This document shows, in pieces, positions 1,585-25,701 of a stretch of DNA of 64,000 nucleotides (position 1 is its first letter; each line of letters begins with the position of its first letter). This DNA comes from an uncultured Alphaproteobacteria bacterium (GTDB lineage: Bacteria > Pseudomonadota > Alphaproteobacteria > MPNO01 > DASWLB01). The DNA is taken from contig CAVZIN010000007.1 of the NCBI GenBank assembly GCA_963775315.1, forward strand, positions 841,193-905,192. Direction: 5' to 3'. The notes beneath the pieces are model-generated. The model did no database searches. It saw only the letters and a program-made list of their open reading frames with translations, and was not told where the DNA came from. The translations under genes and the position numbers were made by a program.

Positions 1585-1786
1585 GGCGCTTCCCCCGGTC
1601 TCGTTGGTTTTATGGCGTTCACTATAGGAGGGGCGCGAGCGCCGGTCCATGAAACGCGGCGAACGGGGCGCGGCAGCATATTGTTTATCAGTCAACAATT
1701 TGCTATCCAACGGTCCGGAGCGGTTGCCGGCCCGGTGGGCCGGCGCCAGCTCGACTCCAGGTCTGGATTTCCGCGGAAGGACCGGC

Positions 1787-2266
1787 ATGAAGACGCTGCT
1801 CACCCTCACCGTGAACGGCCGCGAGCGCACCGACGGCGTAGCGACCAGCATGCTGCTGGTGGACTACCTCCGCGAGCATCTGGGGCTGACCGGCACCAAG
1901 ATCGGTTGCGACGGCGGCGAGTGCGGCGCCTGCACCGTGCTTGTGGATGGTGAGCCGCGCCATTCCTGCCTGACCCTCGCCGCGACAATGCAGGGGCGGT
2001 CGGTCGAGACGGTGGAGCATCTGGCCCGCGACGGGCGGCTCGCCGCCATCCAGCGGGGCTTCCACGAGAAGCTCGGCGCCCAGTGCGGCTTCTGCACGCC
2101 GGGTTTCGTGATGGCGGCCGAGGGGCTCCTGCGCGAGAATCCGAACCCGAGCGAGGAAGATATTCGCGCGGGGCTCGCCTCGAACATCTGTCGCTGCACC
2201 GGCTACATCAAGATCATCGAGGCGGTGCAGGACGCCGCCCGCGAGCTGCGGGAGAGCGCGGCATGA
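1787..2266 (+). CDS. Molybdenum hydroxylase small subunit, (2Fe-2S)-binding (CoxS/XdhC-type)
   Basis: [13 protein letters not shown]..., two Cys clusters ([11 protein letters not shown] and CGFCTPG...CRCTGY), and position as first gene of an S-L-M operon. Confidence 0.9.
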
Positions 2267-2287
2267 GGTTCGCGACCCCCATCCCCG

Positions 2288-2354
2288 CCCTCCTCCTGCA
2301 AGGGGGAGGGGGCGAGCGCCGATACAACGCGTCCCTCCCCCTGCAAGGGGGAGG
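2288..2354 (+). repeat. Two tandem GC-rich stem-loops (CCCTCC(T/C)CC-TGCAA-GGGGGAGG) in the spacer between the small and large molybdenum hydroxylase subunit genes
   Basis: Copy 1 lies at 2288-2312 and copy 2 at 2332-2354. Both have the same TGCAA loop and sit in a 130-bp spacer, REP-like. Confidence 0.6.
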
Positions 2355-2396
2355 ACAGGAGGGGGTCGGCACTGGCGGGATTCGGGAGCAACTCGC

Positions 2397-4748
2397 ATGA
2401 GCACCATTCTCGAGCGCGGCGGGGCGGCCCCGGCGCCGGCCGAATCGATTGGCGTCCGGACGCCGCTGGTGGACGGGCCGGAGAAGGTCGCCGGCAAGGC
2501 GATGTACGCCGCCGACTTCGTGACCCCGGACACCCTGACCGGCCGCATCCTCCGCAGCCCGCATGCCCACGCGCGCATCCTGTCGGTCGACGTCTCGGCC
2601 GCGCGGGCGCTGTCCGGCGTGAAGGCAGTGGTGACGGGCGAGGATTGCGCCGCCAATTACGGCGTATTGCCGATCGCCATGAACGAATGGGCGCTGGCGC
2701 GCGGCAAGACCCGCTATCGCGGCGAGCCGATCGCAGCCGTCGCCGCCGTCGATGCCGAGACGGCGAACCGCGCCCTCGGCCTCATCGAGGTCGCGTACGA
2801 GGTGCTGCCCGCCTACTTCAAGGCGAAGGACGCCCGCGCCGAAGGGGCAATCCAGCTCCATGACGAGAAGCCGGGCAACATCGAGCGCGAGGTGCATTTC
2901 GAGCTCGGCGATCTCGCCAAGGGCTTCGCCGAGGCGGATTTGGTGCGCGAGGCGGAGTTCGACTGCGCCGAAGTGTGCCAGGTGCAGTCCGAACCGCACG
3001 CAGCCTTCGCCGAGTACGACGCGCTGCGCAACCGGCTGACGGTGCGCGCCTCGACCCAGGTGCCGTACTACGTGCATCTGATGCTTGCCCGCACGCTGGG
3101 CATGGACCGCTCGCGCATCCGGGTCATCAAGCCGCAGGTCGGCGGCGGGTTCGGCTGTCGCACCGAGACGCTGCAGATCGAGCTGATCGCGGCGCTGCTC
3201 GCCCGCGCGGCGAAGGGCACGGTACGCATCGTCGCCTCGCGCGAGGAGACCTTCATTACCCATCGCGGCCGGCCGGAGACGCAGAGCCGGATCAAGATCG
3301 GGCTCCGCAAGGACGGCAGGATCACCGCGGTCGAGTTCGAGACGGTGCAGCGCGGCGGGGCCTATTCGGGTTACGGCATCGTCACCATCATCTATGCCGG
3401 CTCGATGCTGTACGCGCTCTACGACATCCGGGCCGCGAAGTACGACGGCTACCGCGTGCTCACCAACACGCCGGTAAACGGTGCGTTCCGCGGCCACGGC
3501 ACGGTGAACACGCGCTTCGCCTTCGAGAATCTCTTGGACCAGATGGCGCACGAGATGGGGCTCGATCCCTTCGCCGTGCGGCGCGCGAACCTCCTGAAGG
3601 CGCCGACCGTCACCCAGAACGACATGATGGTAAACTCCTACGGATTGCCGGAGTGCCTGGACTGGGTGGAGCAGGCGTCGGGCTGGCGCGAGCGCAAGGG
3701 CAAGATGGACAAGTGGCGCGGGCTCGGCATGGCCTGCTCGCACTACATCTCCGGCGCGTCGAAGCCGAAGCACTGGACCAACGAGCCGCACGCGACCGTC
3801 AATCTCAAGCTCGATTTCGACGGGGCGGTGACGCTGCTGACCGGCGCATCTGACATCGGCCAGGGCTCGACCACCGTGCTGACCCAATGCGCCGCCGAGG
3901 TGCTCGGCATCCCGATCGACCGCATCCGCGCCGTGGTCAACGATTCCGCGCTGACGCCGAAAGACAACGGGTCCTATTCCTCGCGCGTCACCTTCATGGT
4001 GGGGAACGCCGCGATCGACGCGGCGAAGAACCTCAAGACCGTGCTGATCGAGGCCGCGGCCCGCAAGCTCGACGTGAAGCCCGAGGACGTCGAATGCCTG
4101 GGCGAGCTCTACCGCGCCGGCACGCAGGACGAGGGGCTCACCTTCGACGAGGTCGTGATGGCGGCGCTCGAGGAGACCGGAACGCTGACCGTGAAGGGCA
4201 AGTTCTCCACCATCCCCGGTAGCTGGGGCACCAAGAAATATCGTGGCGGCGCCATCGGCGGCACGATGGCCTATTCCTACGCCGCCCAGGTCGTCGAGTT
4301 GTCGGTCGACCCGGAAACCTGCGAGATCAAGGTCGAGAAGGTCTGGGTCGCGCACGATTGTGGCAAGGCGCTGAACCCCTTGTCCGTGGAAGGACAGGTG
4401 CAGGGCTCGGTGTGGATGGGGATGGGCCAGGCGCTGACCGAGGAGACGCGGTATCACCAGGGGCTCGGCATCACCAACTCGATGCTCGACTACCGCGTGC
4501 CGACCATCGTGGAATCGCCGCCGATCGAGGTGAAGATCGTCGAGGCGAACGATCCATATGGGCCATTCGGCGCCAAGGAGGCGGGCGAAGGCTCGCTCGC
4601 GGGCTTCATTCCGGCGCTGGCCGCCGCGATCGCCGACGCGACCGGCGTGCGGCCGAATGTGCTGCCGATTACGCCCGACCGGCTGATGGAAATGTTGGAG
4701 AAGCGCGAGCGGTTCGGCGGCGGCGCCGCCGACGAGGTCGAGGAGTAG
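2397..4748 (+). CDS. Molybdenum hydroxylase large subunit, molybdopterin-binding (xanthine dehydrogenase/aldehyde oxidase family; substrate unknown)
   Basis: 783 aa with typical family blocks ([10 protein letters not shown], dimerisation and MoCo domains). It lacks the CO-dehydrogenase VAYRCSFR loop, so it is a heterocycle or aldehyde hydroxylase rather than a CODH. Confidence 0.9.
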
Positions 4749-4775
4749 CGGTCGAGCGTTCGGCCCTCGTAGTTC

Positions 4776-4812
4776 GACAGGCTCACCATGATGGCCCCAC
4801 CCTGAGCCTGTC
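4776..4812 (+). repeat. Perfect 10-bp inverted repeat (GACAGGCTCA-N17-TGAGCCTGTC) in the spacer between the large and medium subunit genes
   Basis: Seen directly in the sequence; located in a 107-bp spacer. Confidence 0.55.
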
Positions 4813-4855
4813 GAAGGGCGAGGCCCGACGAAAAGAACCAGGGTTGCGGTAGAAC

Positions 4856-5830
4856 ATGGAATTCATGCCCGATTTTGCCCTTCACCGTCCCGCGACGGTG
4901 GACGAGGCGGTGAAGCTCCGCGCGGCCGAGGCGGGTTCGCGCTTCTGCGCCGGCGGCACCGACATGCTGGTGAACGTCCGGCGCGGGATCGAGAGCCCGA
5001 CGGCGCTGATCGACCTCACCGGCGTCCCCGGCCTCGGCGAGATTGCCGAGACGGACGACGGGCTCCTCATCGGCGCGGCGGTGACGCTCGACGCGCTCGC
5101 CCGCCACCCTGCGGTGCGGCGCGACTGTCCTGCCGTCGCCGAGGCGGCGGGCGAGGTCGCCGGGCCCACCCACCGGCGCTACGGCACGGTCGGCGGCAAC
5201 CTCTGCCTCGACACCCGTTGCCTGTTCTACAACCAGTCGGAATGGTGGCGGAAATCCAACGACTACTGCCTGAAGCGGAACGGCACGGTGTGCCACGTCG
5301 CGCCGGGTGGCAAGCGCTGCTTCGCGGCCTTCTCGGGCGACGTCGCGCCGGCGATGCTGGTCTCGGGCGCCGAGATCGAGATCGCGGGGCCGGCGGGCAC
5401 GCGGCGCGTCCCGCTCACGAGCCTCTACCGCAATGACGGGATGAACCACTTGACGCTTGCCCCGGGGGAGATGGTGAGCGTCGTGCATCTGCCGAAGCCG
5501 GTTACGGGCGCGCGGACAGGCTATGCCAAGGCGCGGGTGCGCGGCTCGATCGACTTTCCGCTGGCGGGCGCTGCCGTGCGGCTTCGCATGGACGGCGCCA
5601 ACGTCGCCGAGCTCGCGGTCGCGCTGACCGGCGTCAACCCATACCCGCATCTGGTCCGGGGGCTCGAGCCATTCGTCGGCAAGCCGCTCGACGACGCGGC
5701 ACTCGACCGGCTGCGCGAGACGGTGCGCCGCCAGGCGAAACCCATGCGCACCACGACGGTGAAGCCTTGGTACCGCCGCCGCGTGGTCGGCGCACTCGCC
5801 CGCAAGCTCGCGGTGCGTCTCGCGGGCTGA
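4856..5830 (+). CDS. Molybdenum hydroxylase medium subunit, FAD-binding (CoxM-type)
   Basis: 324 aa, GGTDM FAD-binding motif, CO dehydrogenase flavoprotein-like, third gene of the S-L-M operon. Confidence 0.9.
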   Translation: MEFMPDFALHRPATVDEAVKLRAAEAGSRFCAGGTDMLVNVRRGIESPTALIDLTGVPGLGEIAETDDGLLIGAAVTLDALARHPAVRRDCPAVAEAAGEVAGPTHRRYGTVGGNLCLDTRCLFYNQSEWWRKSNDYCLKRNGTVCHVAPGGKRCFAAFSGDVAPAMLVSGAEIEIAGPAGTRRVPLTSLYRNDGMNHLTLAPGEMVSVVHLPKPVTGARTGYAKARVRGSIDFPLAGAAVRLRMDGANVAELAVALTGVNPYPHLVRGLEPFVGKPLDDAALDRLRETVRRQAKPMRTTTVKPWYRRRVVGALARKLAVRLAG

Positions 5831-5858: not shown

Positions 5859-7124
5859 ATGGGCATGAACATCGCCGAGAAGATCCTGGCGCGCGCGGCC
5901 GGAACGGAGCGCGTCGTGCCGGGCGACATCGCCATCGTCGAGGTCGGTACCGCCGTCCTGATGGACATGAACTTCATGCCGGCGAGCTGGCGCGAGATCC
6001 TGAAGGTTCACGATCCGAAGCGCGTCGTCGTCGTGCTCGACCACATGGTCCCGGCGAACGAGCCGCAATCGGCCGGCGCCCACGCCAGGGCGCGCGAGTT
6101 CTGCGCCACGTTCGGCATCGAGCGGTTCCACGACGTCGGGCGCAACCAGGGCATCAGCCACGTCGTCGTCGCCGACAACGCCTACGCGCTGCCCGGCACG
6201 GTGATGGTGAACCCGGATTCGCACACCTGCGGCGGCGGCGCGTTCAACTGCGCCGCGCGCGGCGTCGGGCTGCCCGAGACGACCTTCGCCGTCACTACCG
6301 GCAAGAGCTGGTTCCGCGTCGGCGAGACGGTGCGCTACGAGCTGCACGGCAGGCTTTCGCCCGGCGTCTCGGCCAAGGACGTGTTCCTCCACATCGCGGG
6401 CAAGTACGGCGTGCACGTCAACCAGAACGTCGAGTTCGGCGGGCCGGGCATGTCATCGCTCAGCCTCAACGCGCGCCGCACCATCGCCATCATGGGCGCC
6501 GAGCTCTCGGCCGAGTTCGTGATCTTCGAGCCGGACGATGCGATGCTCGACTACGTCAAGGCGCGCAACCCGGCGCCGTTCGAGGCGACCTGGCCGGACG
6601 CGGACGCCACCTACGCCGACCGCCGGACGCTCGACCTCGCTTCGATCGAGCCGCTTGTCGCGCTGCCCGACGCGATGCTCAACAACGCGGTGCCGGTGGG
6701 CGAGGCGGCGGGCGAGCGGATCGACCAGGCCTTCATCGGCTCCTGCGCCAACGGCACGCTCGACGATTTCGCGATCGCGGCGAGGGTGCTGGCGGGTCAG
6801 CGCGTCGCGCCGGGCGTCCGGCTGATCGTCACGCCCGGATCGCAGGCGATCTATCGCGAGGCGTTAGCGAAGGGCTACGTCGCGACCATCGCCGAGGCCG
6901 GCGCGGTCGTGACGCCCGCCACCTGCGGCGCCTGCGTCGGCGGCCACATGGGCGTGCTCGGGCCGGGCGAGATATGCATCACCGCCTCGACCCGCAACTT
7001 CAAGGGCAGGATGGGCGACCCCACGGCGCGCATCTATATGGCCTCGCCGGCGACGGTCGCGGCCTCGGCTATCGCCGGGCACATCGCCAGTGCCGCCGAG
7101 TATTTCGCGGGAGATTTGTCGTGA
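5859..7124 (+). CDS. Aconitase-family hydro-lyase large subunit (LeuC/homoaconitase/maleate-hydratase-like)
   Basis: MNIAEKILARA..., aconitase catalytic-domain motifs and three conserved Cys (ICITASTRNF), short LeuC type of 421 aa. Confidence 0.85.
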   Translation: MGMNIAEKILARAAGTERVVPGDIAIVEVGTAVLMDMNFMPASWREILKVHDPKRVVVVLDHMVPANEPQSAGAHARAREFCATFGIERFHDVGRNQGISHVVVADNAYALPGTVMVNPDSHTCGGGAFNCAARGVGLPETTFAVTTGKSWFRVGETVRYELHGRLSPGVSAKDVFLHIAGKYGVHVNQNVEFGGPGMSSLSLNARRTIAIMGAELSAEFVIFEPDDAMLDYVKARNPAPFEATWPDADATYADRRTLDLASIEPLVALPDAMLNNAVPVGEAAGERIDQAFIGSCANGTLDDFAIAARVLAGQRVAPGVRLIVTPGSQAIYREALAKGYVATIAEAGAVVTPATCGACVGGHMGVLGPGEICITASTRNFKGRMGDPTARIYMASPATVAASAIAGHIASAAEYFAGDLS

Positions 7125-7618
7125 TCGGCGCTCGCCTCTGGAAGTTCGGCGACGACATCAACACCGACCTCCTGCTGCCCGGCTCGGCGATGATGAAGCC
7201 GGAGCCGGAGCAGGCGCGCGCCGTGTTCGCCGCCAACCGGCCGGGCTGGGTGGACGAGATGAAGCCGGGCGACGCGCTGGTCGCCGGGCGCAATTTTGGC
7301 ATGGGCTCGAATCGTCCGGCCTCGCGCTCGCTCCGTAATCTGGGGGTCGCCTTCCTGCTCGCGGAATCGATCAACGGGCTCTTCTTCCGCAACAGCGTGA
7401 ACTACGGCCTCGTCGCGCTCGAATGCCCGGGCTGCTATGCGGCGTTCGAGGAGGGCGACATGGCCGAGCTCGACCTCGCGGCCTGGACGGTGCGCAACGC
7501 GCGCACCGGCGCGGTGCTGACGCCCGACCCGATTCCGGAGCGGCTGCTGACCCTGATGCAGGGCGGCGGCATCTACCCGCTGATGGAGCGCGAGGGGCTG
7601 GTCGCCCCGCGCCGTTGA
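7120..7618 (+). CDS. Aconitase-family hydro-lyase small subunit (LeuD-like swivel domain)
   Basis: The GTG start overlaps the stop of the large subunit (GTGA). Sequence IGARLWKFGDDINTDLLLPG... is a classic LeuD N-terminus; 166 aa. Confidence 0.85.
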
Positions 7619-7637: not shown

Positions 7638-7859
7638 CTACGCCCGCGGGATCAGGTGGAGCATCATCAGCTCGTCGGGGGTGAGGGAACGGCGCGCGCC
7701 GTCCCCCGGATAGACCTCCCACGCGTCGCGCTCGACGGTCTGCCAATCGAACCCGACGATCAGGGCGAGAGCGATGCGCGCCAGCGTCCGCCTCAGCCCC
7801 GCCTCGCGCGCGGGCGCGACGTAGCCCGGCGGGTCGTAGCGCTTCAGCACCCCGCTCAT
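7638..7859 (-). CDS. Small hypothetical protein (73 aa) co-transcribed downstream of the Rieske oxygenase pair
   Basis: ATGA start/stop overlap with the upstream Rieske gene, strong GC3 codon bias, and it fills the convergent gap. No recognisable domain. Confidence 0.4.
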   Translation of the reverse strand: MSGVLKRYDPPGYVAPAREAGLRRTLARIALALIVGFDWQTVERDAWEVYPGDGARRSLTPDELMMLHLIPRA

Positions 7860-8881
7860 GACGCAAGCCTCGATTCGGGCTCGCCCTCGGCGGCGAGCAG
7901 GTCCTGGAGCATGCGGCGCATGCGCAGCCCCGGCGCGTCGCTCATCATGTGGAACTCCAGCGGATCCTTGTTGTCGAGCGGCACGTCGAATTCGGTCGAC
8001 TCCAGGATCTCCTTGTCTTCCAGCGTGACCTGCCGGTCGAAGGCGATGATGTCGGCGGCCTTCGCCTCTTCCTCGGTGTCGCTGCGGTAGCAGAACTGGA
8101 CCACCATCGCGCGGTCGTCGGCCATCGGCGTCGCCGCGGTGATGATGGTGTGCTGGAGCCCGTGCGGATAGGTGATGCCCAGCCGGCGCACGAACGGCAT
8201 GTACCACGTGGAGTGGTTCTTCCGCACCGTCTCCTCGGAATTCGCCCCGCCGAGATATTTCTGCGAGACGGCGCCGCGGTTCATGACCTTGTGCTCGGCG
8301 AAGATGTGGAAGCCATAGTCGAACGGCTCGATCTCCACTTTGGCGGGTACCGGCTGCCGGTCGTTGCCGAAACTTGCGCGGTGGGTGAAGGCGATGTGCG
8401 CGGCGTCGAACGAGTTCTCCATCAGCCGCAGCGGCGCGATCTTCCACTCCTCGTAGAACTGGTCGATGCGCCGCAGCCCGTCGGTCTCGTCCGGGAAGTC
8501 CGGAAGCGGGGCCAGCGGCTCGTCGAGCGCGACCCACACATGGCCGTAACGGACCGCCGTGCGGTAGGAGGGCACGCGGAGCTCCGCCGGCACCTTTTTC
8601 GGATCGGGCTGCTGCGGGATGGTGACGCAGCGTCCGGTGCCGTCGTACTGCCAGCCGTGATAACCGCAGGTGGCGAGCCCTTCGGCGAGATAGCCCTTGG
8701 AGATTTTCGCCGTGCGATGACAGCACCGGTCACGGATGCAGGCGACCGAGCCGTCGGCTTCGCGCCACAGCACGATGTTCTCGCCCAGCAGGGTGAACGG
8801 CACCAGCCCGGCGTCGAGATGGCCTTCGCGGAGCACCGGGTACCAGAAGCGCCGCAGGCTCTTTTGCATCGTGGTCAGCAT
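7856..8881 (-). CDS. Alpha-only Rieske non-heme iron oxygenase (NdmA/NdmB-like N-demethylase/hydroxylase family)
   Basis: Rieske ligands CCHRTAKIS...CGYHGWQY, mononuclear Fe motif ENSFDAAHIAFTH, an N-terminal RRFWYPV block resembling NdmA RHFWHPV, and an ATG at 8881 with an AAAGGA RBS. Confidence 0.85.
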   Translation of the reverse strand: MLTTMQKSLRRFWYPVLREGHLDAGLVPFTLLGENIVLWREADGSVACIRDRCCHRTAKISKGYLAEGLATCGYHGWQYDGTGRCVTIPQQPDPKKVPAELRVPSYRTAVRYGHVWVALDEPLAPLPDFPDETDGLRRIDQFYEEWKIAPLRLMENSFDAAHIAFTHRASFGNDRQPVPAKVEIEPFDYGFHIFAEHKVMNRGAVSQKYLGGANSEETVRKNHSTWYMPFVRRLGITYPHGLQHTIITAATPMADDRAMVVQFCYRSDTEEEAKAADIIAFDRQVTLEDKEILESTEFDVPLDNKDPLEFHMMSDAPGLRMRRMLQDLLAAEGEPESRLAS

Positions 8882-8897: not shown

Positions 8898-9950
8898 TCA
8901 GGCCGCAGCCGTCGTGTCGCGTTCGTCGGGTGTGCCGGTCGTGCGCGCCTCGCGCTCGCCGTGCGCCGCAAGCAGCTTCATCAGCCGCTTGCGCATTTCG
9001 AGACCGGGCCGGTCGGACCACATGTGCAGCTCCTCGCGGCGGCGCAGATCGAGTGGCACGTCCCAGTCGCACGCCTCCAGGATGGCGCGGTCCTCGTGCG
9101 TCACCTGGCGGTCGAAGGCGATGACACCCTCGGCCGGCGCGTCCGCCTCGGTGTCGTTGCGCACCGCGAACTGGGTCAGGATCGAGCGGCGGTCGTCGAT
9201 CGGCGCGGTCAGGGTGATCAGGATGTGTACGAGCCCGTTCGGGTAGGTGATCTTCATCTTGCGGCTGAACGGCATCCACCACGTCTTTTCGTAGTTGCGG
9301 ACCGTCCGGTCGCCGGATTCGCGCAGGTTTCGCTTCTGGATGTCCGGGTTCTGCACCGGCACGATGGTCCGCATGACGAACCCGTCATCCGTGTCGGTGA
9401 TGCTCATCGGCTGCGGCTCGGGCTCCTCGATGATCCCGAACGACGCGCGGTGAACGAAGGAGAAGTGCGCGTTGTCGAATGAGTTCTCCATGATGCGGAG
9501 GCCTGGCGCATCCCACTCCTCCCAGAACTCGTGAAACTGCCGGAAGCCGGTCATGGCGGCCTCGGGCAGCGCCGGAATGTCGTACAGCGGTTCCTCCAGG
9601 GCGACCCAGACATAGCCGTAGCGCTCGGCGCAGTGGTAAGACTTGACCCGGGCGCCCGAGGGCACCGCGCCGTTCCGCGCCTGGGGCACCTTCACGCACA
9701 GCCCGTCCGGGCGGTAGGTCCAGCCGTGATAGCCGCAGACGATGTTCCCGTCTTCGCACCAGCCGTGGCTCAGCTTGGCGGTGCGGTGGCAGCAGCGGTC
9801 GGCCACGGCGGCGGGCGCGCCGTCCGGCCCATTCCACAGCACGATGTCCTCGCCCAGCAGGCGGAACGGCCGCGGCGCGTCGCCAAGCTCTGACATTGGC
9901 ATCAGCGCGTACCAGAACCGGCGAAAAACGGGCTGCTGCGTCACGAGCAT
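8898..9950 (-). CDS. Alpha-only Rieske non-heme iron oxygenase, paralog 2 (NdmA/NdmB-like)
   Basis: CCHRTAKLSHG...CGYHGWTY and ENSFDNAHFSFVH motifs, AGGAGG RBS before the ATG at 9950, and a sigma-54 promoter about 40 bp upstream. Confidence 0.85.
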   Translation of the reverse strand: MLVTQQPVFRRFWYALMPMSELGDAPRPFRLLGEDIVLWNGPDGAPAAVADRCCHRTAKLSHGWCEDGNIVCGYHGWTYRPDGLCVKVPQARNGAVPSGARVKSYHCAERYGYVWVALEEPLYDIPALPEAAMTGFRQFHEFWEEWDAPGLRIMENSFDNAHFSFVHRASFGIIEEPEPQPMSITDTDDGFVMRTIVPVQNPDIQKRNLRESGDRTVRNYEKTWWMPFSRKMKITYPNGLVHILITLTAPIDDRRSILTQFAVRNDTEADAPAEGVIAFDRQVTHEDRAILEACDWDVPLDLRRREELHMWSDRPGLEMRKRLMKLLAAHGEREARTTGTPDERDTTAAA

Positions 9951-9989: not shown

Positions 9990-10006
9990 TTGCAAGTTCC
10001 GTGCCA
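9990..10006 (-). promoter_or_regulatory. Sigma-54 (RpoN) promoter for the Rieske oxygenase operon
   Basis: Minus strand reads TGGCACGGAACTTGCAA, a GG-N10-GC match to TGGCACG-N4-TTGCW, about 40 nt upstream of the start at 9950. Confidence 0.7.
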
Positions 10007-10060: not shown

Positions 10061-10984
10061 CTAGCCCGTGGGCAGCGCTGCCCGAAACGGATGCGTCCGC
10101 ATCCAATGTCGTGCGACGTCGACGCGGCGCGCGATCCATACGTCGCGATGGCCGAGTACGTGATCGAGGAAGCGCTCGACACCGGCGGCGCGCGCGGCAT
10201 GGCCGCTGACCCGGAGGTGGAGCGAGAGGGTCATCGCCCGCGGCCGCCGCGCCGACTCCCGGTACAGGACGTCGAACGCATCGGTCATGTAGGTGACGAA
10301 GTCGCTGGACGTGGCGAACCAGCCGCGGCCGTACTTGTTGTCGTTGTGACTGAAGGTGTGGGGCAGGACCAGGAACGGCTTGCCGCGATCGGTCGTCCAG
10401 AACGGCAGGTCGTCGGCGTAGGAGTTGCAGTCGTAGAGGAAGCCGCCCTCTTCGATCAGCAGCCGTCGGGTGTTGAGCGACGGCCCGTAGCGGCAATACC
10501 AGCCGAGGGGCCGTTCACCCATTGTGCGGGTGAGCGAGGCGACGGCGCCGACGATGTGGTCGCGCTCCGCCGCCTCGTCCATGTTGAACTGCTCGACCCA
10601 GCGCCAGCCGTGGCAGAGCACTTCCCACCCCGCCTCTCGGATCGCCTGGGCAGCGTCGGGATTGCGCTCGAGGGCGAGCGCCGCACCGCTTACCGTCACG
10701 GGCAAGTCGCGCTCACGGAACAGATCGTGCAGCCGCCAGAATCCGACCCGGCTTCCGTATTCGAACAGGGACTCGGCGGCGAGGTCGCGCCCCTTGACGC
10801 CGAGGTCCGGGGCGCCGGCGTCGGTCATCGTGGCCTCCGACCTGCCGTCGCCGTCGGGCACCGAGTACTCCGACCCCTCCTCGTAATTCAGCACCAGGTT
10901 GAACGCCATGCGGGCGCCGTTGGGCCAGCACGGGTCGGGCGGATTGCGCCCGTACCCGACCATGTCGCGCGGATAGTCGGTCAT
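10061..10984 (-). CDS. Divergent PuuE-type allantoinase / polysaccharide deacetylase-family cyclic-ureide hydrolase
   Basis: MTDYPRDMVGYGRNPPDP...NYEEG...FEYGSRVGFWRL resembles PuuE, but the active-site region differs from the canonical copy at 23390. ATGA overlap with the allA stop. Confidence 0.8.
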   Translation of the reverse strand: MTDYPRDMVGYGRNPPDPCWPNGARMAFNLVLNYEEGSEYSVPDGDGRSEATMTDAGAPDLGVKGRDLAAESLFEYGSRVGFWRLHDLFRERDLPVTVSGAALALERNPDAAQAIREAGWEVLCHGWRWVEQFNMDEAAERDHIVGAVASLTRTMGERPLGWYCRYGPSLNTRRLLIEEGGFLYDCNSYADDLPFWTTDRGKPFLVLPHTFSHNDNKYGRGWFATSSDFVTYMTDAFDVLYRESARRPRAMTLSLHLRVSGHAARAAGVERFLDHVLGHRDVWIARRVDVARHWMRTHPFRAALPTG

Positions 10985-11481
10985 GCGGCGATTTCCACGC
11001 GGAGCCCCAGCCGCCCTTTCAGGGCCGCCGACTGGTGGTCGGTCCGGTTGGTGTCGGCGAGCTCGAGATTGAGGAAGTCCATGCAGGGCGCACGGAAATA
11101 AGGGCCCGCATGCCAGGTGCCGCAGTGGAGCTTCACGATGGCGGGTCCGACGATGGTGAAGGCGCGGAGCGTGCCGGGTTCGGGCAGCGCCTGTGGGTCG
11201 TCGAACGCCGCGGGTGGCGCCACCGCGAGGAACCATTCGAGCCCGAGGGCCGATCCCAGGCACTGCGTCACCTTCCGGTGTCGCGCCAGTGCCTCGAAGG
11301 CCAACCCGTGGTCGGGCACGCGCATGATGTAGAGCCGCGGCGTGCCGCCGAATTCCAGCCGCGCGTCCTCCGGACCGAACGGCGTGCCGTAGCCGGAGGG
11401 CGCGATCAGCTCGCCGAATGGCGCAAACGCGGCGGCGGTGATCGGCTCGGGCCGGAGGCGGATCAGGCGAGGTTCGATCAT
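10981..11481 (-). CDS. allA: Ureidoglycolate lyase (AllA family)
   Basis: 166 aa with the AllA-family PFG motif (EPITAAAFAPFGELI), consistent size and ureide-pathway context. Confidence 0.8.
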   Translation of the reverse strand: MIEPRLIRLRPEPITAAAFAPFGELIAPSGYGTPFGPEDARLEFGGTPRLYIMRVPDHGLAFEALARHRKVTQCLGSALGLEWFLAVAPPAAFDDPQALPEPGTLRAFTIVGPAIVKLHCGTWHAGPYFRAPCMDFLNLELADTNRTDHQSAALKGRLGLRVEIAA

Positions 11482-12768: not shown

Positions 12769-12784
12769 TGCAAATTCCGTGCCA
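12769..12784 (-). promoter_or_regulatory. Sigma-54 promoter for the FAD monooxygenase-allA-puuE-like operon
   Basis: Minus strand reads TGGCACGGAATTTGCA, about 35 nt upstream of the start at 12734. Confidence 0.7.
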
Positions 12785-12912: not shown

Positions 12913-12930
12913 TTGGCACGATTCTTGCGA
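12913..12930 (+). promoter_or_regulatory. Sigma-54 promoter for the isochorismatase-cupin-CocE operon
   Basis: TGGCACGATTCTTGCGA. The 22-mer GGTTGGCACGATTCTTGCGAGG is identical to the promoter at 20156-20177 on the opposite strand. Confidence 0.75.
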
Positions 12931-18516: not shown

Positions 18517-19304
18517 GATTGGCGCCCCATCGCATCGGTCAGCATCGCGGATACCTCGCGGCAGTAGTCGGCGTAGACGTTCGAGGTGCGGAATGCCTCG
18601 GTCCGGGGGTAGGGGGCGTCGATCTCGATCTCGCCCACGACGCGGCCCGGCCGCGCGGCCATCACGATGATGCGGCGCGAGAGGTAGACCGACTCGAAAA
18701 CGCTGTGGGTAACGAAGATCACCGTCCAGTCGTTGTCGCCCCAAAGCTCCAGCAGGTCGTTGTTGAGCTTGAAACGCGTGATTTCGTCGAGGGCGGCGAA
18801 GGGCTCGTCCATCAACAGGAGGCGCGGCTTCACGATCATGCCGCGCGCGATGGAGACGCGCATCTTCATGCCGCCCGAAAGCTCGCGCGGGTAGGAATTC
18901 TCGAAGGCGGAGAGCCCGACGCGCGCGATGGCCGCCTTCACATCCGGCGCGGCCTTCGTCCGCGAGACGCCCTCGAGGCGGAGGGGGAGGTAGACGTTCT
19001 CGAACACCGTGGCCCAGGGCATCAGGGTCGGCTCCTGGAACACGAAGCCCACTTCGCGCTCCGGGTTGCCGCCTGCGTCGTAGGACGAGGTGGGCCAGTC
19101 GACCGTGCCGGCGCTCACCCCGGACAGGCCCGAGATGAGCTTGAGTGCCGTCGACTTGCCGCAGCCAGACGGGCCCAGCAGGCTGACGAAATCGTGCTCG
19201 TGGATGTCGATGTCGAGCCCGCGCAGCGCAATCGTTCCATTTTCGAACGTCTTGGAGACGCCCTTGATGCTGACCAGCGGGCGATCGGCCGTGATTACCG
19301 CCAT
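18513..19304 (-). CDS. ABC transporter ATP-binding protein (NitT/TauT family)
   Basis: Walker A GPSGCGKST, signature LSGGMKMR, Walker B LLLMDEP, GGAGAAGG RBS. Confidence 0.9.
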   Translation of the reverse strand: MAVITADRPLVSIKGVSKTFENGTIALRGLDIDIHEHDFVSLLGPSGCGKSTALKLISGLSGVSAGTVDWPTSSYDAGGNPEREVGFVFQEPTLMPWATVFENVYLPLRLEGVSRTKAAPDVKAAIARVGLSAFENSYPRELSGGMKMRVSIARGMIVKPRLLLMDEPFAALDEITRFKLNNDLLELWGDNDWTVIFVTHSVFESVYLSRRIIVMAARPGRVVGEIEIDAPYPRTEAFRTSNVYADYCREVSAMLTDAMGRQS

Positions 19305-20128
19305 GACGACGCCTTCTCCATGCTGTGGCGCGAGATGATGCGGTCGAGCGGGTAGCGCGCGACCTCGTCCAGAAGCGCGACCAGTGCATTGGCCGCGTGG
19401 TCGATCAGCAGCTTTCCGCGCTCCGGATCGGCGTCGAGCGCATTGCCGCAGGCGCCATCGGGGTGCAGGTCCTGGGTTTGCCAGCCGAACCCGATCTTCC
19501 CTTCGGCGCGGAGGTAGGTGTAGCTCCGCGCCACGTCCTCGGCGGCGGATTGGAAGTTCGCGAGGCGCGCGTGGTTCACGAGCTCGGGTCGCGCCGCCAT
19601 CATGATCGAGGTCTCGACCGCGCCGCCGTGGATGCCGAACTCGAGCTCGTCGTCGCTGAACAGGCCCTTCGGCCGCCCGAGTCCGCCCGGTCCCACCGTG
19701 ACGACGAACATGCCGAGCCGGACGCGCAGATCGCGGGCGACGATGTCGGCGATCTGCGGCTGTCCGCCATGGGTGTTGAGGATCAGCATGCGGCGCACGC
19801 CGGTCCGATGGACCAACTCGCCGATCTCGGTCCAGAGGCGCGTCAAAGTCTCGGCCGACAGGGTAAGCGTTCCGGGAAATTCCTGGTGCTCGTTCGATTT
19901 GCCGACGTTCATCGCCGGTAGGACGAGGACGGGCAGTGCCTCGGGCGCGCGCGCCACGGCCTCGCCGACGATCGCCCGGTTGATCGCGGCGTCGACGCAA
20001 ACCGGGAGATGCGGCCCGTGCTGTTCAATGGCGGCGACCGGCAGCAGGGCGACGATGCGCGCGGCATCCAGTGCCGCGAACTCCGTGGTCGTCAGCTCTT
20101 CCCAATAGCGGCTCGGCAATCGGCTCAT
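19295..20128 (-). CDS. Creatininase-family amidohydrolase (creatinine amidohydrolase-like)
   Basis: 277 aa with creatininase-fold motifs (HGPHLP, NTHGG), GGGAAGGG RBS, and a sigma-54 promoter about 30 bp upstream. Confidence 0.85.
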   Translation of the reverse strand: MSRLPSRYWEELTTTEFAALDAARIVALLPVAAIEQHGPHLPVCVDAAINRAIVGEAVARAPEALPVLVLPAMNVGKSNEHQEFPGTLTLSAETLTRLWTEIGELVHRTGVRRMLILNTHGGQPQIADIVARDLRVRLGMFVVTVGPGGLGRPKGLFSDDELEFGIHGGAVETSIMMAARPELVNHARLANFQSAAEDVARSYTYLRAEGKIGFGWQTQDLHPDGACGNALDADPERGKLLIDHAANALVALLDEVARYPLDRIISRHSMEKASSWR

Positions 20129-20157
20129 CGCATCCCTTCCCGGTCCCGCCCCATCCC

Positions 20158-20177
20158 TCGCAAGAATCGTGCCAACC
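20158..20177 (-). promoter_or_regulatory. Sigma-54 promoter for the creatininase-ABC ATPase-deaminase-FAD oxidase operon
   Basis: Minus strand reads GGTTGGCACGATTCTTGCGA, about 30 nt upstream of the start at 20128. Confidence 0.75.
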
Positions 20178-20314
20178 GGCGGCGCTGCGGATTTGACGCG
20201 ATTTGCGCCGCAAGGCGCCGCGCGGCTGCACAGCGAATGCGCAGGCTGGTCACGCGATGGGCAACGCGGCCCCGTGAAACGTGCGAAGGGGCCCGCACGC
20301 GGCCGTTTTCGTCG

Positions 20315-20331
20315 TGGCACGGTTCTTGCGA
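20315..20331 (+). promoter_or_regulatory. Sigma-54 promoter for the Rieske-less oxygenase paralog
   Basis: TGGCACGGTTCTTGCGA, 30 nt upstream of the ATG at 20361. Confidence 0.7.
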
Positions 20332-20360
20332 CGCAAAGGCGGTCTACCAAGGGAGGAGCC

Positions 20361-21239
20361 ATGCTTGCGACCCGACAGAACTTGCTGCGCCACTTCTGGT
20401 ACCCGCTGATGCCCGTCGACGGCATCGGGCTGCTGCCGCGCCCGTTCACGCTGCTGGGCCGCGAACTTCTCTTGTGGCGCGATGCGGGAGGAGCGGTCCG
20501 GGCCTCTCCGGAGCCGGCCGGCATCGACGAGCGCTACGGCTATGTCTGGCTCGTCCTCGCCGAGCCGCTGTTCCCGATCCCACCGCTGCCGCCGGCATCG
20601 GACCCGGCGTTTCGCATGATCTCCGAATTTTACGAGGTGTGGCGCTGCGCCGGGCTCCGGCTTATGGAGAACGAGTTCGACAATGCCCACGTTGCCTTCG
20701 TCCACCGCGCGACGTTCGGGGTGATCGCGGAGCCCGAGCCGCCGCGCTCGACCATCTCGCCGACCGCGGATGGGTTCGAGATGCGGACCGTGTTCAACGT
20801 CCGCAACAACGATTTGCAACTGCGCAACCTGCGGACCGCCGAGGACCGCATCGACCGCAATATCGTGATGACCTGGTTCATGCCGTTCTCGCGGACGCTC
20901 GACATCCGCTATCCGAGCGGGCTGCGCCACGTGATCTTCACCGCCGCTACCCCGATCGACGACGCCCATTCGCAGTTCGTGCAGTTCGCCATGCGGAACG
21001 ACAGCGAGGCCGAGGCGTCGGCCGCGGGAGTCGTCGCGTTCGACCGGCAGGTGACCTCGGAGGACCGCGCTGTCCTGGAGACGACCGACCCCGACGTGCC
21101 GCTCGACCTCCGTGCCCGGAACGAGGTGCACATGGCATCGGACCGACCGGGGCTGGTGATGCGCCGCATGCTGGGGGCGGTTCTCGCCCGGCGCGGAGAG
21201 GCGGAGGCGACGGGTGCGCGCGCGCCTGCCTGTTCCTGA
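20361..21239 (+). CDS. Rieske-less paralog of the Rieske oxygenase catalytic subunit (NdmC-like; retains the mononuclear Fe site)
   Basis: 292 aa that align with the paralogs at 7856 and 8898, but the roughly 55 aa carrying CxH...CxxH are absent. Keeps ENEFDNAHVAFVH. GGGAGGAG RBS and a sigma-54 promoter. Confidence 0.75.
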   Translation: MLATRQNLLRHFWYPLMPVDGIGLLPRPFTLLGRELLLWRDAGGAVRASPEPAGIDERYGYVWLVLAEPLFPIPPLPPASDPAFRMISEFYEVWRCAGLRLMENEFDNAHVAFVHRATFGVIAEPEPPRSTISPTADGFEMRTVFNVRNNDLQLRNLRTAEDRIDRNIVMTWFMPFSRTLDIRYPSGLRHVIFTAATPIDDAHSQFVQFAMRNDSEAEASAAGVVAFDRQVTSEDRAVLETTDPDVPLDLRARNEVHMASDRPGLVMRRMLGAVLARRGEAEATGARAPACS

Positions 21240-21325
21240 GGCTGTTGACCAACGATTGATCGAACTTTGTCGGGAAGCGACGGACGCGAAGGCCGTTCGC
21301 GCCCGCCCGGTGGCATTCCCCGCCG

Positions 21326-21341
21326 TGGCACGAATCTTGCA
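21326..21341 (+). promoter_or_regulatory. Sigma-54 promoter for the SBP-permease-puuE-allC-uraD-puuD operon
   Basis: TGGCACGAATCTTGCA, about 47 nt upstream of the ATG at 21388. Confidence 0.7.
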
Positions 21342-21387
21342 TCGCCCCTTTCGGCCGTCCGCAACGTCGAACGATTGGAGATCAACG

Positions 21388-22449
21388 ATGCCGACCAGAT
21401 TATCGAAGCCGCGCGGTCTCGCGGCGAGGCGCGCTGCGCCCCTGTTTGCCGCGGCAGCCGCCTTCGTCGCCGCGGCGCTTTCGGCCCATGGCGCCCTCGC
21501 GAACGAGAAGATCAACTTCCTGACCTCGTGGAAGGCGGAGGCCGAGCACGGCGGCTTCTACCAGGCGCAGGCGACGGGCATCTACAAGAAGTACGGGCTC
21601 GACGTCACGATCCGCCAGGGCGGACCGCAGATCAACGCAACCCAGATGCTGGTCGCGGGCGCGGTCGACATGGCCATGCTGTCTTCGAACGACGACCTGC
21701 TGGTCGCGCTCAAGAATGGCGGGCACATCACGGCTGTGATGGCCGGCATGCAGAAATCGCCGCGTGTCCTGCTTGCCCATCCCGACTCGGGGATCAAGTC
21801 GCTTGCCGACATGAAGGGGCGGCCGATCTTGATCTCCTCGGAATCGATCAACACCATGTTCGCCTGGCTCAAGGCCAAGTATGGGTTCAAGGATTCCCAG
21901 ATCCGCAAGTACACGTTCAACATGGCGCCCTTCATCGCCGAGAAGTCCGCCATTCAGCAGGGCTATGTGTCGAGCGAGCCCTACGTCATCAAGAAGGAGG
22001 GCGGGTTCGACCCGGAGGTCTTCCTCCTCGCCGACTACGGCTACGACACCTACGCCACGATCGTCGCCGTGCCGAACTCGTGGATAAAGACGAAGCCTAA
22101 GGTGGTGCAGGACTTCGTCAACGCCTCGATCGACGGCTGGTACAGCTACATGTACGGCGACCCGTGGCCCGCGAACGCCCTGATCAAGAAGGACAATCCG
22201 GAGATGACCGATGACACGATCGCGTACTCGATCGAGACGATGAAGAAGTACGGCATCGTCGATTCCGGCGACTCCCTGAAGGAAGGGATCGGCGCGATGT
22301 CGGACGCGCGCTGGAAGAGCCAGTTCGACGCGGCCGCGTCAGTTGGGGTCTATCCGAAGGACCTTCCCTACAAGGAGGCCTACACGCTCCAGTTCGTGAA
22401 CAAGGGTCACGGGCTCGAGATGAAGTCCGCCATGAAGCCGAAGATGTGA
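21388..22449 (+). CDS. ABC transporter substrate-binding protein (NMT1/TauA/SsuA family), paralog 1
   Basis: Signal peptide, NMT1-like fold, GGAGA RBS and a sigma-54 promoter. Confidence 0.9.
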   Translation: MPTRLSKPRGLAARRAAPLFAAAAAFVAAALSAHGALANEKINFLTSWKAEAEHGGFYQAQATGIYKKYGLDVTIRQGGPQINATQMLVAGAVDMAMLSSNDDLLVALKNGGHITAVMAGMQKSPRVLLAHPDSGIKSLADMKGRPILISSESINTMFAWLKAKYGFKDSQIRKYTFNMAPFIAEKSAIQQGYVSSEPYVIKKEGGFDPEVFLLADYGYDTYATIVAVPNSWIKTKPKVVQDFVNASIDGWYSYMYGDPWPANALIKKDNPEMTDDTIAYSIETMKKYGIVDSGDSLKEGIGAMSDARWKSQFDAAASVGVYPKDLPYKEAYTLQFVNKGHGLEMKSAMKPKM

Positions 22450-23389: not shown

Positions 23390-24313
23390 ATGCGTGACGG
23401 AGACGCCACCGGCTATCCGCGCGACATGCGCGGCTACGGGGCGACGCCGCCGGACCCTTACTGGCCCGGTGGCGCCCGTCTCGCCCTCCAGTTCGTGATC
23501 AATTACGAGGAGGGGGCGGAGAATTGCGTGCTGCACGGCGACGCGGCGTCGGAGGCGTTCCTGTCCGAGATCGTCGGGGCCGTGCCGATCCAAGGCGCGC
23601 GCCACATGAACATGGAGAGCCTCTACGAATACGGCAGCCGGGCTGGGTTCTGGCGGCTGCACCGGCTGTTCGCCTCGCGCGACCTGCCGGTCACCGTGTT
23701 CGGTGTCGCCATGGCGCTGGCGCGCAATCCGGAGGCGGTCGCCGCGATGATCGAGGCCGGATGGGAGATCGCAACCCATGGCTGGCGCTGGATCGACTAT
23801 CAGCATGTGTCCGAGGCGGAGGAGCGCGCCGACCTGCTCCGTGCCATCGAAGTTCACACAGGCGCGACCGGGCAGCGCCCGCTCGGCTGGTATCTCGGCC
23901 GGTGTAGCCCGAACACGCGCCGGCTGGTGGCGGAGGAGGGCGGGTTCCTCTACGACGCCGACAGCTATGCCGACGACCTGCCCTATTGGGACACGAGCCA
24001 CGGCCGAGCGCAGCTCATCGTCCCCTATACGCTCGACGCCAACGACATGCGGTTCGCGACGGCGCAAGGCTTCAACGCCGGCGACCAGTTCTTCGCCTAT
24101 CTGAAGGACAGCTTCGATGTGCTGTACGCCGAGGGCGGCGAACAGCCGAAGATGATGTCCGTCGGGCTGCATTGCCGCCTGATCGGTCGGCCCGGCCGCA
24201 TCGCGGCGCTCGCGCGCTTTCTCGACTATATCGCGAGCCATGACCAGGTGTGGGTGTGCCGGCGCATCGACATCGCACGCCACTGGCACGCCCGCCACCC
24301 GCCGCCGTCGTGA
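23390..24313 (+). CDS. puuE: Allantoinase PuuE (polysaccharide deacetylase type)
   Basis: YPRDMRGYG...NYEEGAENCVLHGD...ESLYEYGSRAGFWRL is nearly collinear with characterised PuuE. Confidence 0.9.
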   Translation: MRDGDATGYPRDMRGYGATPPDPYWPGGARLALQFVINYEEGAENCVLHGDAASEAFLSEIVGAVPIQGARHMNMESLYEYGSRAGFWRLHRLFASRDLPVTVFGVAMALARNPEAVAAMIEAGWEIATHGWRWIDYQHVSEAEERADLLRAIEVHTGATGQRPLGWYLGRCSPNTRRLVAEEGGFLYDADSYADDLPYWDTSHGRAQLIVPYTLDANDMRFATAQGFNAGDQFFAYLKDSFDVLYAEGGEQPKMMSVGLHCRLIGRPGRIAALARFLDYIASHDQVWVCRRIDIARHWHARHPPPS

Positions 24314-25599: not shown

Positions 25600-25701
25600 G
25601 GCCGGTTCTCCGCGCGCCAGGGCAGCGATTTCCACGCATTTCCGGTCGCCCATGCTTGGCACGCCGCTTGCAAGGCGAGGGACGGGACAAGGCGTGAGGC
25701 G

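Follow-up and report, generated by a model that had tools for sequence, protein, structure and literature searches.

Can an oxygenase that has lost its own Rieske cluster still work and, if so, from where would its electrons come? What defines Rieske oxygenases is that the Rieske cluster in one subunit passes electrons to the catalytic iron in the adjacent subunit. The question is raised by a gene at positions 20361..21239 (+) of a 64-kb stretch of DNA from an uncultured alphaproteobacterium (contig CAVZIN010000007.1), which was analyzed over its whole length and is called the window here. Its 292-amino-acid (aa) product is a VanA/Ndm-type oxygenase α subunit, as judged from Pfam and from alignment with its paralogs, and lacks the region that binds the [2Fe-2S] cluster. 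To our knowledge, NdmC is the only described member of the family that outsources its cluster, for which it depends on a dedicated reductase fusion together with a glutathione S-transferase (GST) scaffold. From the sequence evidence set out below, we consider it an evenly balanced proposition that the window gene encodes a working catalytic subunit, made from its sigma-54 promoter and supplied with electrons by a Rieske cluster in trans.

The open reading frame (ORF) runs from ATG 20361 to TGA 21239. A preliminary description of the locus had aligned its product end to end with two Rieske oxygenases encoded in the same window, and this was borne out: the protein is 56% identical to par2 (350 aa; 8898..9950 (-)) and 48% identical to par1 (341 aa; 7856..8881 (-)) over end-to-end alignments, and it contains each of the shared blocks that had been quoted (RHFWYPLMPV, ERYGYVW, and ENEFDNAHVAFVHRATFG). 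Pfam assigned PF00355 (Rieske) plus VanA_C to each of the two paralogs, in which the Rieske motif is present (in par2, the motif CCHRTAKLSHGWCEDGNIVCGYH), but only VanA_C (PF19112; 2.4e-22, residues 94-276) to the 292-aa protein, for which the NCBIfam scan gave no match. Compared with the paralogs, the whole CxH...CxxH region is taken out by gaps of 46 and 7 columns that lie next to each other, and the ligand pattern CxH-x15-17-CxxH is absent. The loss thus amounts to ~53 residues, close to the ~55 that had been claimed.

The preliminary description had itself named the check that could have overturned this observation, namely that the ligands might be present after all through a frameshift or a miscalled start. 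Both were ruled out. The N-terminus MLATRQ fits the family consensus MLVTxQ, and the in-frame extension back to GTG 20169 has a non-coding composition (G+C at the three codon positions, GC1/2/3, of 0.73/0.72/0.62), in contrast to the gene itself (0.69/0.48/0.88), which is of the coding type and resembles its paralogs. Furthermore, a search for CxH-x14-24-CxxH in six frames of the 64-kb window found none besides those of par1 and par2. As there is no Rieske motif in any frame, neither a frameshift nor a start miscall could rescue the ligands.

Structure prediction suggests what was removed. In the alignments, the deletion junction falls at codons 49-53 (SPEPA; 20505..20519 (+)). The AlphaFold2 model of the 292-aa protein has a mean predicted local distance difference test score (pLDDT) of 91.4 and a predicted TM-score (pTM) of 0.90, with values of 95-98 over the first 100 residues, including the junction, and ~97 for the strands around it. 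In the control model of par2, a strand at 46-50 is followed by the cluster-binding subdomain (51-105) and then by strands 106-110 and 113-117, whereas the strands of the 292-aa protein lie at 46-49, 54-58, and 61-65, and the turn P50-E-P-A53 now links the first of them to the second. As modeled, the deletion is a clean subdomain excision between two neighboring strands, and the remnant comprises a six-stranded N-terminal β base and the entire catalytic domain, in addition to the turn of four residues.

The catalytic domain retains its metal site. The E-x3-D-x2-H-x4-H motif, which had been called intact, is indeed so: it is present as E103-x3-D107-x2-H110-x4-H115 (ENEFDNAHVAFVH; 20667..20705 (+)), with the bridging aspartate D107 and the ligands H110 and H115, and its columns are invariant in a 76-sequence alignment. 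The residues E234-D235 of the C-terminal helix (21060..21065 (+)) also occupy invariant columns and were aligned with the ED of NdmA by phmmer; from what is known of the family, we take D235 to be the carboxylate ligand of the iron. Altogether, the protein matches 43/43 invariant columns of this alignment, of which it is itself a member. The closest solved structures by sequence are those of NdmA and NdmB, with GxtA and SxtT, the best being NdmA (phmmer E = 1.5e-14; ~22% identity). By Foldseek, GxtA/SxtT were among the top matches, with query-normalized TM-scores of 0.76-0.79; the better-matching chains gave 0.70-0.73 for NdmA and 0.71-0.75 for dicamba monooxygenase (DMO).

An assembly artefact is unlikely, as the identical protein was also called on a contig of an independent Logan assembly (run ERR11571143). 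A recent duplication of par1 or par2 is ruled out by the identities of 48-56% and by the gene's own long branch in the family tree. As a separate observation, valS (valyl-tRNA synthetase; 46693-49360) is present as two overlapping ORFs with a frameshift near 47895, the reading of one frame continuing as 'IPAWYGPDG...' in the next. This split reflects either an indel of the assembly or a genuine lesion of an essential gene, and suggests an assembly with single-base errors.

Is the gene expressed? The preliminary description had credited it with its own ribosome-binding site and sigma-54 promoter and had judged that it does not look decayed, and we agree on both counts. A Shine-Dalgarno sequence, GGGAGGAG, is read at 20351..20358 (+), 2 nt before the ATG, and its GGAGG core lies 4 nt upstream of the start codon, a short but usable spacing. 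Upstream of it, TGGCACGGTTCTTGC (20315..20329 (+)) matches the -24/-12 consensus of sigma-54 promoters exactly. It is one of seven exact elements (TGGCACG-N4-TTGC, also given as TGGCAC-N5-TTGC) in the window, where chance alone would give 0.11, and all of them fall within the interval from 9.9 to 25.7 kb; the others lie at 9992-10006(-), 12770-12784(-), 12914-12928(+), 20160-20174(-), 21326-21340(+), and 25657-25671(+). Among other genes, these elements precede par2-par1, the neighboring creatininase gene, the Rieske-less gene, the transporter operon, and the OHCU decarboxylase operon. The Rieske-less gene therefore has the same type of promoter as its Rieske-bearing paralogs, and the seven elements appear to define a regulon over a heterocycle-catabolic island. 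A search of 20000-21500 gave neither a sigma-70-like site nor an intrinsic terminator, and no sigma-54 activator gene was found in the 64-kb window. A palindrome, CTGCCC-N7-GGGCAG, was considered as a shared activator site, as it occurs upstream of three promoter regions (9992, 12770/12914, and 25657), but was rejected: it is not upstream of the three promoters around the Rieske-less gene (20160, 20315, and 21326). With regard to decay, we found no frameshift, stop, lost catalytic residue, or lost expression signal, and the ORF is intact at 292 codons.

We propose that an in-frame deletion excised the [2Fe-2S]-binding subdomain from a VanA/Ndm-type α subunit, and that the protein would still be made and act as a catalytic subunit, probably of an N-demethylase or hydroxylase. 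In α3 Rieske oxygenases, the iron of a subunit normally receives its electron from the Rieske cluster of the adjacent subunit, via a conserved aspartate. As this bridging residue is kept as D107, the simplest route would be for the Rieske-less subunit to assemble with par1 and/or par2 into a mixed oligomer, in which their Rieske domains would supply its iron site. The two paralogs, 10 kb away, each keep both centers, Rieske and iron; par1 lies 16 nt downstream of par2, and the two are probably in one operon. Judged by its sequence, par2 is a candidate donor of the cluster in trans. Alternatively, electrons could come from a separate Rieske protein encoded outside the window. The earlier statement that no reductase is encoded nearby stood up to our scans: among the scanned ORFs of the window, there was no FNR/VanB-type reductase and no GST domain by Pfam, nor any ferredoxin with the plant-type cysteine pattern.

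Is the loss of the Rieske subdomain a unique event? A HMMER search of 1.84 billion cluster representatives, with the losses placed on a tree of the catalytic domain, suggests otherwise. Apparently, the subdomain has been lost at least eight times independently in the VanA/Ndm branch: in the window gene, in P0086, in P0137, in P0124, in P0409, in the pair P0208/P0273 (76% identity), in the clade of P0146, and in the clade of P0184. Three of these losses are conserved clades. Several of the proteins (286-311 aa) align from residue 1 in a single stretch and have the same architecture as the window protein. The preliminary description knew of NdmC as the only precedent, which holds for the searchable literature but not in sequence space.

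The P0146 clade, with P0169, P0199, and P0204, is a deep one (39-52% pairwise identity). The P0184 clade is monophyletic and comprises P0184, P0392-P0395, P0397, P0401, P0405, P0407, P0410, and P0418, with 52-100% identity to P0184. Its Rieske-less members keep the iron motif, and pairwise dN/dS among four of them is 0.13-0.44, which together point to a Rieske-less architecture held by purifying selection; over the family, the sequences indicate that it is kept by selection in at least three clades. The contigs of four members were examined (P0271 of the P0184 cluster, P0392, P0397, and P0401, the last of which recurs on many contigs), and in 4/4 the gene is the last of an operon 'Rieske oxygenase - creatininase - Rieske-less oxygenase' (~340, ~265-280, and 278-321 aa, respectively) whose neighboring genes abut or overlap. 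These operons lie on high-G+C contigs, at 6161-8903 of L083, 6192-8837 of L084-L087, 6191-8903 of L088, and 1116-3929 of L090-L092; in L093 (5060-8008), a full-length orthologue occupies the third position. The hetero-oligomer with Rieske-bearing paralogs that the preliminary description had offered as one option may draw indirect support from these operons. Near them are further Rieske oxygenases, a 2-oxoglutarate (2OG) oxygenase that is sometimes fused to an oxygenase, an isochorismatase-family hydrolase, a cupin, an amidase, an AtzH-like protein, an FAD_binding_4 oxidase, and an ABC importer, and no reductase was found near the operons on the contigs of the four members. We considered complementary degeneration, in which the partner oxygenase would have lost its iron site, but this is ruled out, as the upstream Rieske oxygenases of the operons keep both centers, as do par1 and par2. 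We found no published description of such an operon, and no searchable paper that names both creatininase (or creatinine amidohydrolase) and Rieske.

Two further architectures were encountered in this survey. Fusion proteins of 691 aa join Rieske, VanA_C, DIOX_N, and 2OG-Fe(II) oxygenase domains (L083 8935-11010; L084 8828-10903; L088 13212-15287), and in P0121 (672 aa), a VanB-like reductase-ferredoxin is joined to a Rieske oxygenase.

The survey leads us to a broader, tentative reading to which we give somewhat less than an even chance: that loss of the Rieske subdomain in one of several paralogs is a recurrent and selected event, in which the shortened subunit would be catalytically active in a mixed oligomer and fed by the cluster of a neighboring paralog, while a creatininase-family protein, usually encoded next to it, may be a coupled enzyme or an NdmE-like scaffold. 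The arrangement would amount to a second mode of trans electron supply that does without NdmD and NdmE, and the window gene would have arrived at it recently and independently. Some of the Rieske-less lineages may not fit this scheme. Genes of P0146, P0169, P0199, and P0204 (L082 7305-8189; L095 3530-4390) and of P0124 (L096 1843-2778) stand beside NMT1-type binding proteins or amidohydrolases, and no neighboring Rieske oxygenase is visible on L082, L095, and L096, which are short contigs. Therefore, donation by a paralog is not a general rule.

The immediate ancestry of the window gene is less well populated. In a collection of 5.8 billion protein clusters, its exact sequence stands as a singleton. 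BLASTP identities to the next relatives, which are ~340-350 aa long with a Rieske domain, are 52-59% and reach at most 61% when shared columns are counted. There are only two exceptions to full length among them: P0086 has a different, partial deletion and an intact relative, P0092, at 86% identity, and P0057 is a frameshifted copy of P0052. In a neighbor-joining tree, the 292-aa protein sits on a long lone branch beside the full-length P0002, and in the catalytic-domain tree built by the same method, it groups with full-length alphaproteobacterial enzymes. The neighboring creatininase, searched against 185,579 species genomes, gave 80 related loci and a best relative of 66% identity. The lineage is poorly sampled, so the absence of an orthologue with the same deletion says little about the age of the deletion. 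In 21/81 loci, the creatininase gene has a VanA-like oxygenase gene within 6 kb, usually together with one for an NMT1-type binding protein, and all of these creatininase-linked oxygenases are full-length, which indicates that the ancestral state at such loci is a complete Rieske oxygenase. Two apparent exceptions in long-read metagenome-assembled genomes, L012 (4800-5863(-)) and L006 (2774-3757(-)), have frameshifts or an in-frame stop, encode complete Rieske domains once stitched, and are probably sequencing errors.

The strongest competitor of a working subunit, and one that the preliminary description did not weigh, is a recently inactivated allele. The in-frame deletion could have killed the activity while ORF, promoter, and ribosome-binding site are intact simply because too little time has passed, and two intact paralogs could cover for a dispensable copy. 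Several observations weigh against a working enzyme and in favor of this possibility. No relative among the 5.8 billion clusters shares the deletion, and all nearest relatives and syntenic homologues keep the Rieske domain. The protein deviates at 9/99 columns that are at least 90% conserved (family median 1.8%; rank 6/150), mostly through conservative changes, and by its N-terminal remnant it ranks third from the bottom of 149 in likeness to the family. Such values hint mildly at relaxed constraint in the sequence, although the excess in the remnant (4/24 columns vs 4/72 in the catalytic domain) has a Fisher p of 0.10, full-length par1 is about as low, and the root-to-tip distance (0.402 vs a mean of 0.335, SD 0.055) is a non-significant 1.2 SD above the mean. 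Moreover, W39 is kept, as it is in the young deletions, whereas most old Rieske-less lineages have lost it (P0199 still has it), a hint that the deletion is young. Within the family, other losses found as singletons (P0086, P0137, and P0057) look like transient lesions, a random deletion falls in frame one time in three, and a high G+C content makes stop codons rare, so that a dead ORF can persist. However, the deletion fits the subdomain boundaries precisely, with a four-residue turn between strands, which is unlikely at random; all catalytic residues and a coding-type codon bias are kept; the promoter and ribosome-binding site are perfect; and purifying selection acts on the same architecture in at least three other clades, including one that is likewise beside a creatininase gene. 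P0137 (297 aa, on a 665-kb ENA contig) has nearly the deletion boundaries of the window gene, but its iron motif has decayed to ESELNAVHSMFAN with loss of an iron ligand, and it illustrates what a truly dead copy looks like. Taking both sides together, we regard a dead allele as a serious possibility, albeit one that falls short of being probable.

Two other explanations were considered. The protein may need no external electrons at all, either as a ligand-binding or scaffolding pseudo-subunit or as an Fe(II) enzyme with electrons supplied by its substrate. The SRPBCC fold is a general ligand-binding fold, the contigs with a Rieske-less gene and no neighboring Rieske oxygenase would fit such a role, and pLDDT in the model dips to 70-75 over residues 101-130, around the iron-binding helices, vs 84-93 in par2. 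Nevertheless, the iron ligands and the electron-bridging aspartate are fully kept, both here and in the conserved Rieske-less clades, and we consider this role improbable. A true NdmC-type system, in which an NdmD-like reductase and a GST-like NdmE are encoded elsewhere in the genome, has a published precedent in NdmC (PMC4408171, PMC10380055) and would suit both the purine-related island and the place of NdmA and NdmB among the closest solved relatives. It is very improbable in our judgment, as there is no reductase, GST, or extra Rieske motif in the 64 kb, none of these partners occurs in the conserved Rieske-less operons of other lineages, and the protein is nested among full-length relatives at 55-61% identity, with NdmA at only ~22%, which argues for an independent origin.

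The setting of the gene is a catabolic island of the purine or urate type. Divergently oriented to it is a creatininase-family amidohydrolase gene (19295..20128 (-); Pfam Creatininase, 3.5e-69), served by the sigma-54 promoter at 20160(-), and directly downstream is a gene for an NMT1/THI5-type ABC substrate-binding protein (21391..22449 (+); Pfam NMT1, 1.2e-32), served by the one at 21326; the order of oxygenase and binding-protein genes is also found in L012. The element at 9992(-) is the promoter of par2. According to Pfam/NCBIfam, the three subunits of a xanthine-dehydrogenase-like molybdoenzyme are encoded at 1649-5830. PuuE-type allantoinases are encoded twice, next to the Rieske paralogs (10061-11101 (-); 355 bits, under the TIGR03212 cutoff of 424.6) and in the transporter operon (23390-24313 (+); 560 bits, over this cutoff), which suggests that a modified ureide and a standard one are handled by parallel branches. 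Further genes encode an HpxO-like FAD monooxygenase, an isochorismatase-family hydrolase, an FAD_binding_4 oxidase, an NMT1-type ABC importer, M20 amidohydrolases, an OHCU decarboxylase, a PuuD-type urate oxidase, and a 2OG-Fe(II) oxygenase. The locus is a sigma-54-controlled catabolic island for a purine-like or other N-heterocyclic nitrogen source, and we found no published pathway for its gene set. An odd companion for purine catabolism is the pair of aconitase/isopropylmalate-isomerase-like large and small subunits (5859-7618 (+)) between the xanthine-dehydrogenase-like genes and the Rieske paralogs.

What would it mean if such proteins are active? Rieske-less clades persist without NdmD or NdmE, usually beside Rieske-bearing paralogs or creatininase/amidohydrolase genes, and a hetero-oligomeric 'division of labor' between paralogs would then be a general design principle, hitherto undescribed. 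Genome annotation would be affected, as such genes are now labeled as ordinary dioxygenase subunits, and so would the engineering of demethylases and our understanding of how bacteria break down N-heterocycles. A dead copy in the window would still show where that evolutionary route begins.

It is instructive to compare the window protein with systems that are already known. With the α3-type enzymes NdmA/NdmB, GxtA/SxtT, and dicamba monooxygenase, it shares the VanA_C/SRPBCC fold and the motif E/D-x3-D-x2-H-x4-H; in contrast to the window protein, which is without the cluster-binding subdomain, all of them have a complete Rieske domain. Closer in architecture is NdmC, the 7-methylxanthine N7-demethylase of Pseudomonas putida CBB5. 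NdmC works without a Rieske cluster of its own, within an NdmCDE system that includes the reductase NdmD, which has an extra Rieske domain, and the GST-like NdmE (PMC4408171, PMC10380055). Like NdmC, the window protein keeps the mononuclear iron site in the absence of its own cluster, has two Rieske-bearing paralogs alongside (NdmA/NdmB there, par1/par2 here), and belongs to a purine-catabolic setting. The differences lie in the partners: an NdmD with its extra N-terminal Rieske domain was not found in the window by Pfam and a six-frame scan confined to the window, and a GST-like NdmE was not found there by Pfam. The label 'NdmC-like' in the preliminary description is thus apt as an analogy, in that the cluster is lost and the iron site kept, but does not extend to the partners or to common descent. 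Judged indirectly, from full-length relatives at 55-61% and NdmA at ~22% identity, the window protein appears not to be an NdmC orthologue, and its loss of the cluster appears to be independent.

The closest counterpart in overall design is the P0184 clade. Its members (269-321 aa) have the N-terminal β remnant, no CxH/CxxH, and an intact iron motif, adjoin a creatininase-family gene with no reductase nearby, and share with the window a locus that holds Rieske-bearing paralogs, a 2OG oxygenase, an isochorismatase-family hydrolase, an FAD_binding_4 oxidase, and an ABC importer. Despite these similarities, the window protein is only 33-36% identical to them, the creatininases are ~34% identical, and the catalytic-domain tree places the window protein outside the monophyletic Rieske-less clade. 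The arrangement differs as well: in the window, the Rieske-less gene and the creatininase gene point away from each other and have their own sigma-54 promoters, whereas in the clade the Rieske-less gene lies downstream and overlaps; the binding protein is of the NMT1 type in the window and of the SBP_bac_1 type in the clade. While the clade is demonstrably conserved, as its dN/dS values attest, the window gene is a singleton. Given the low identity and the position in the tree, the resemblance between the two is convergent rather than inherited.

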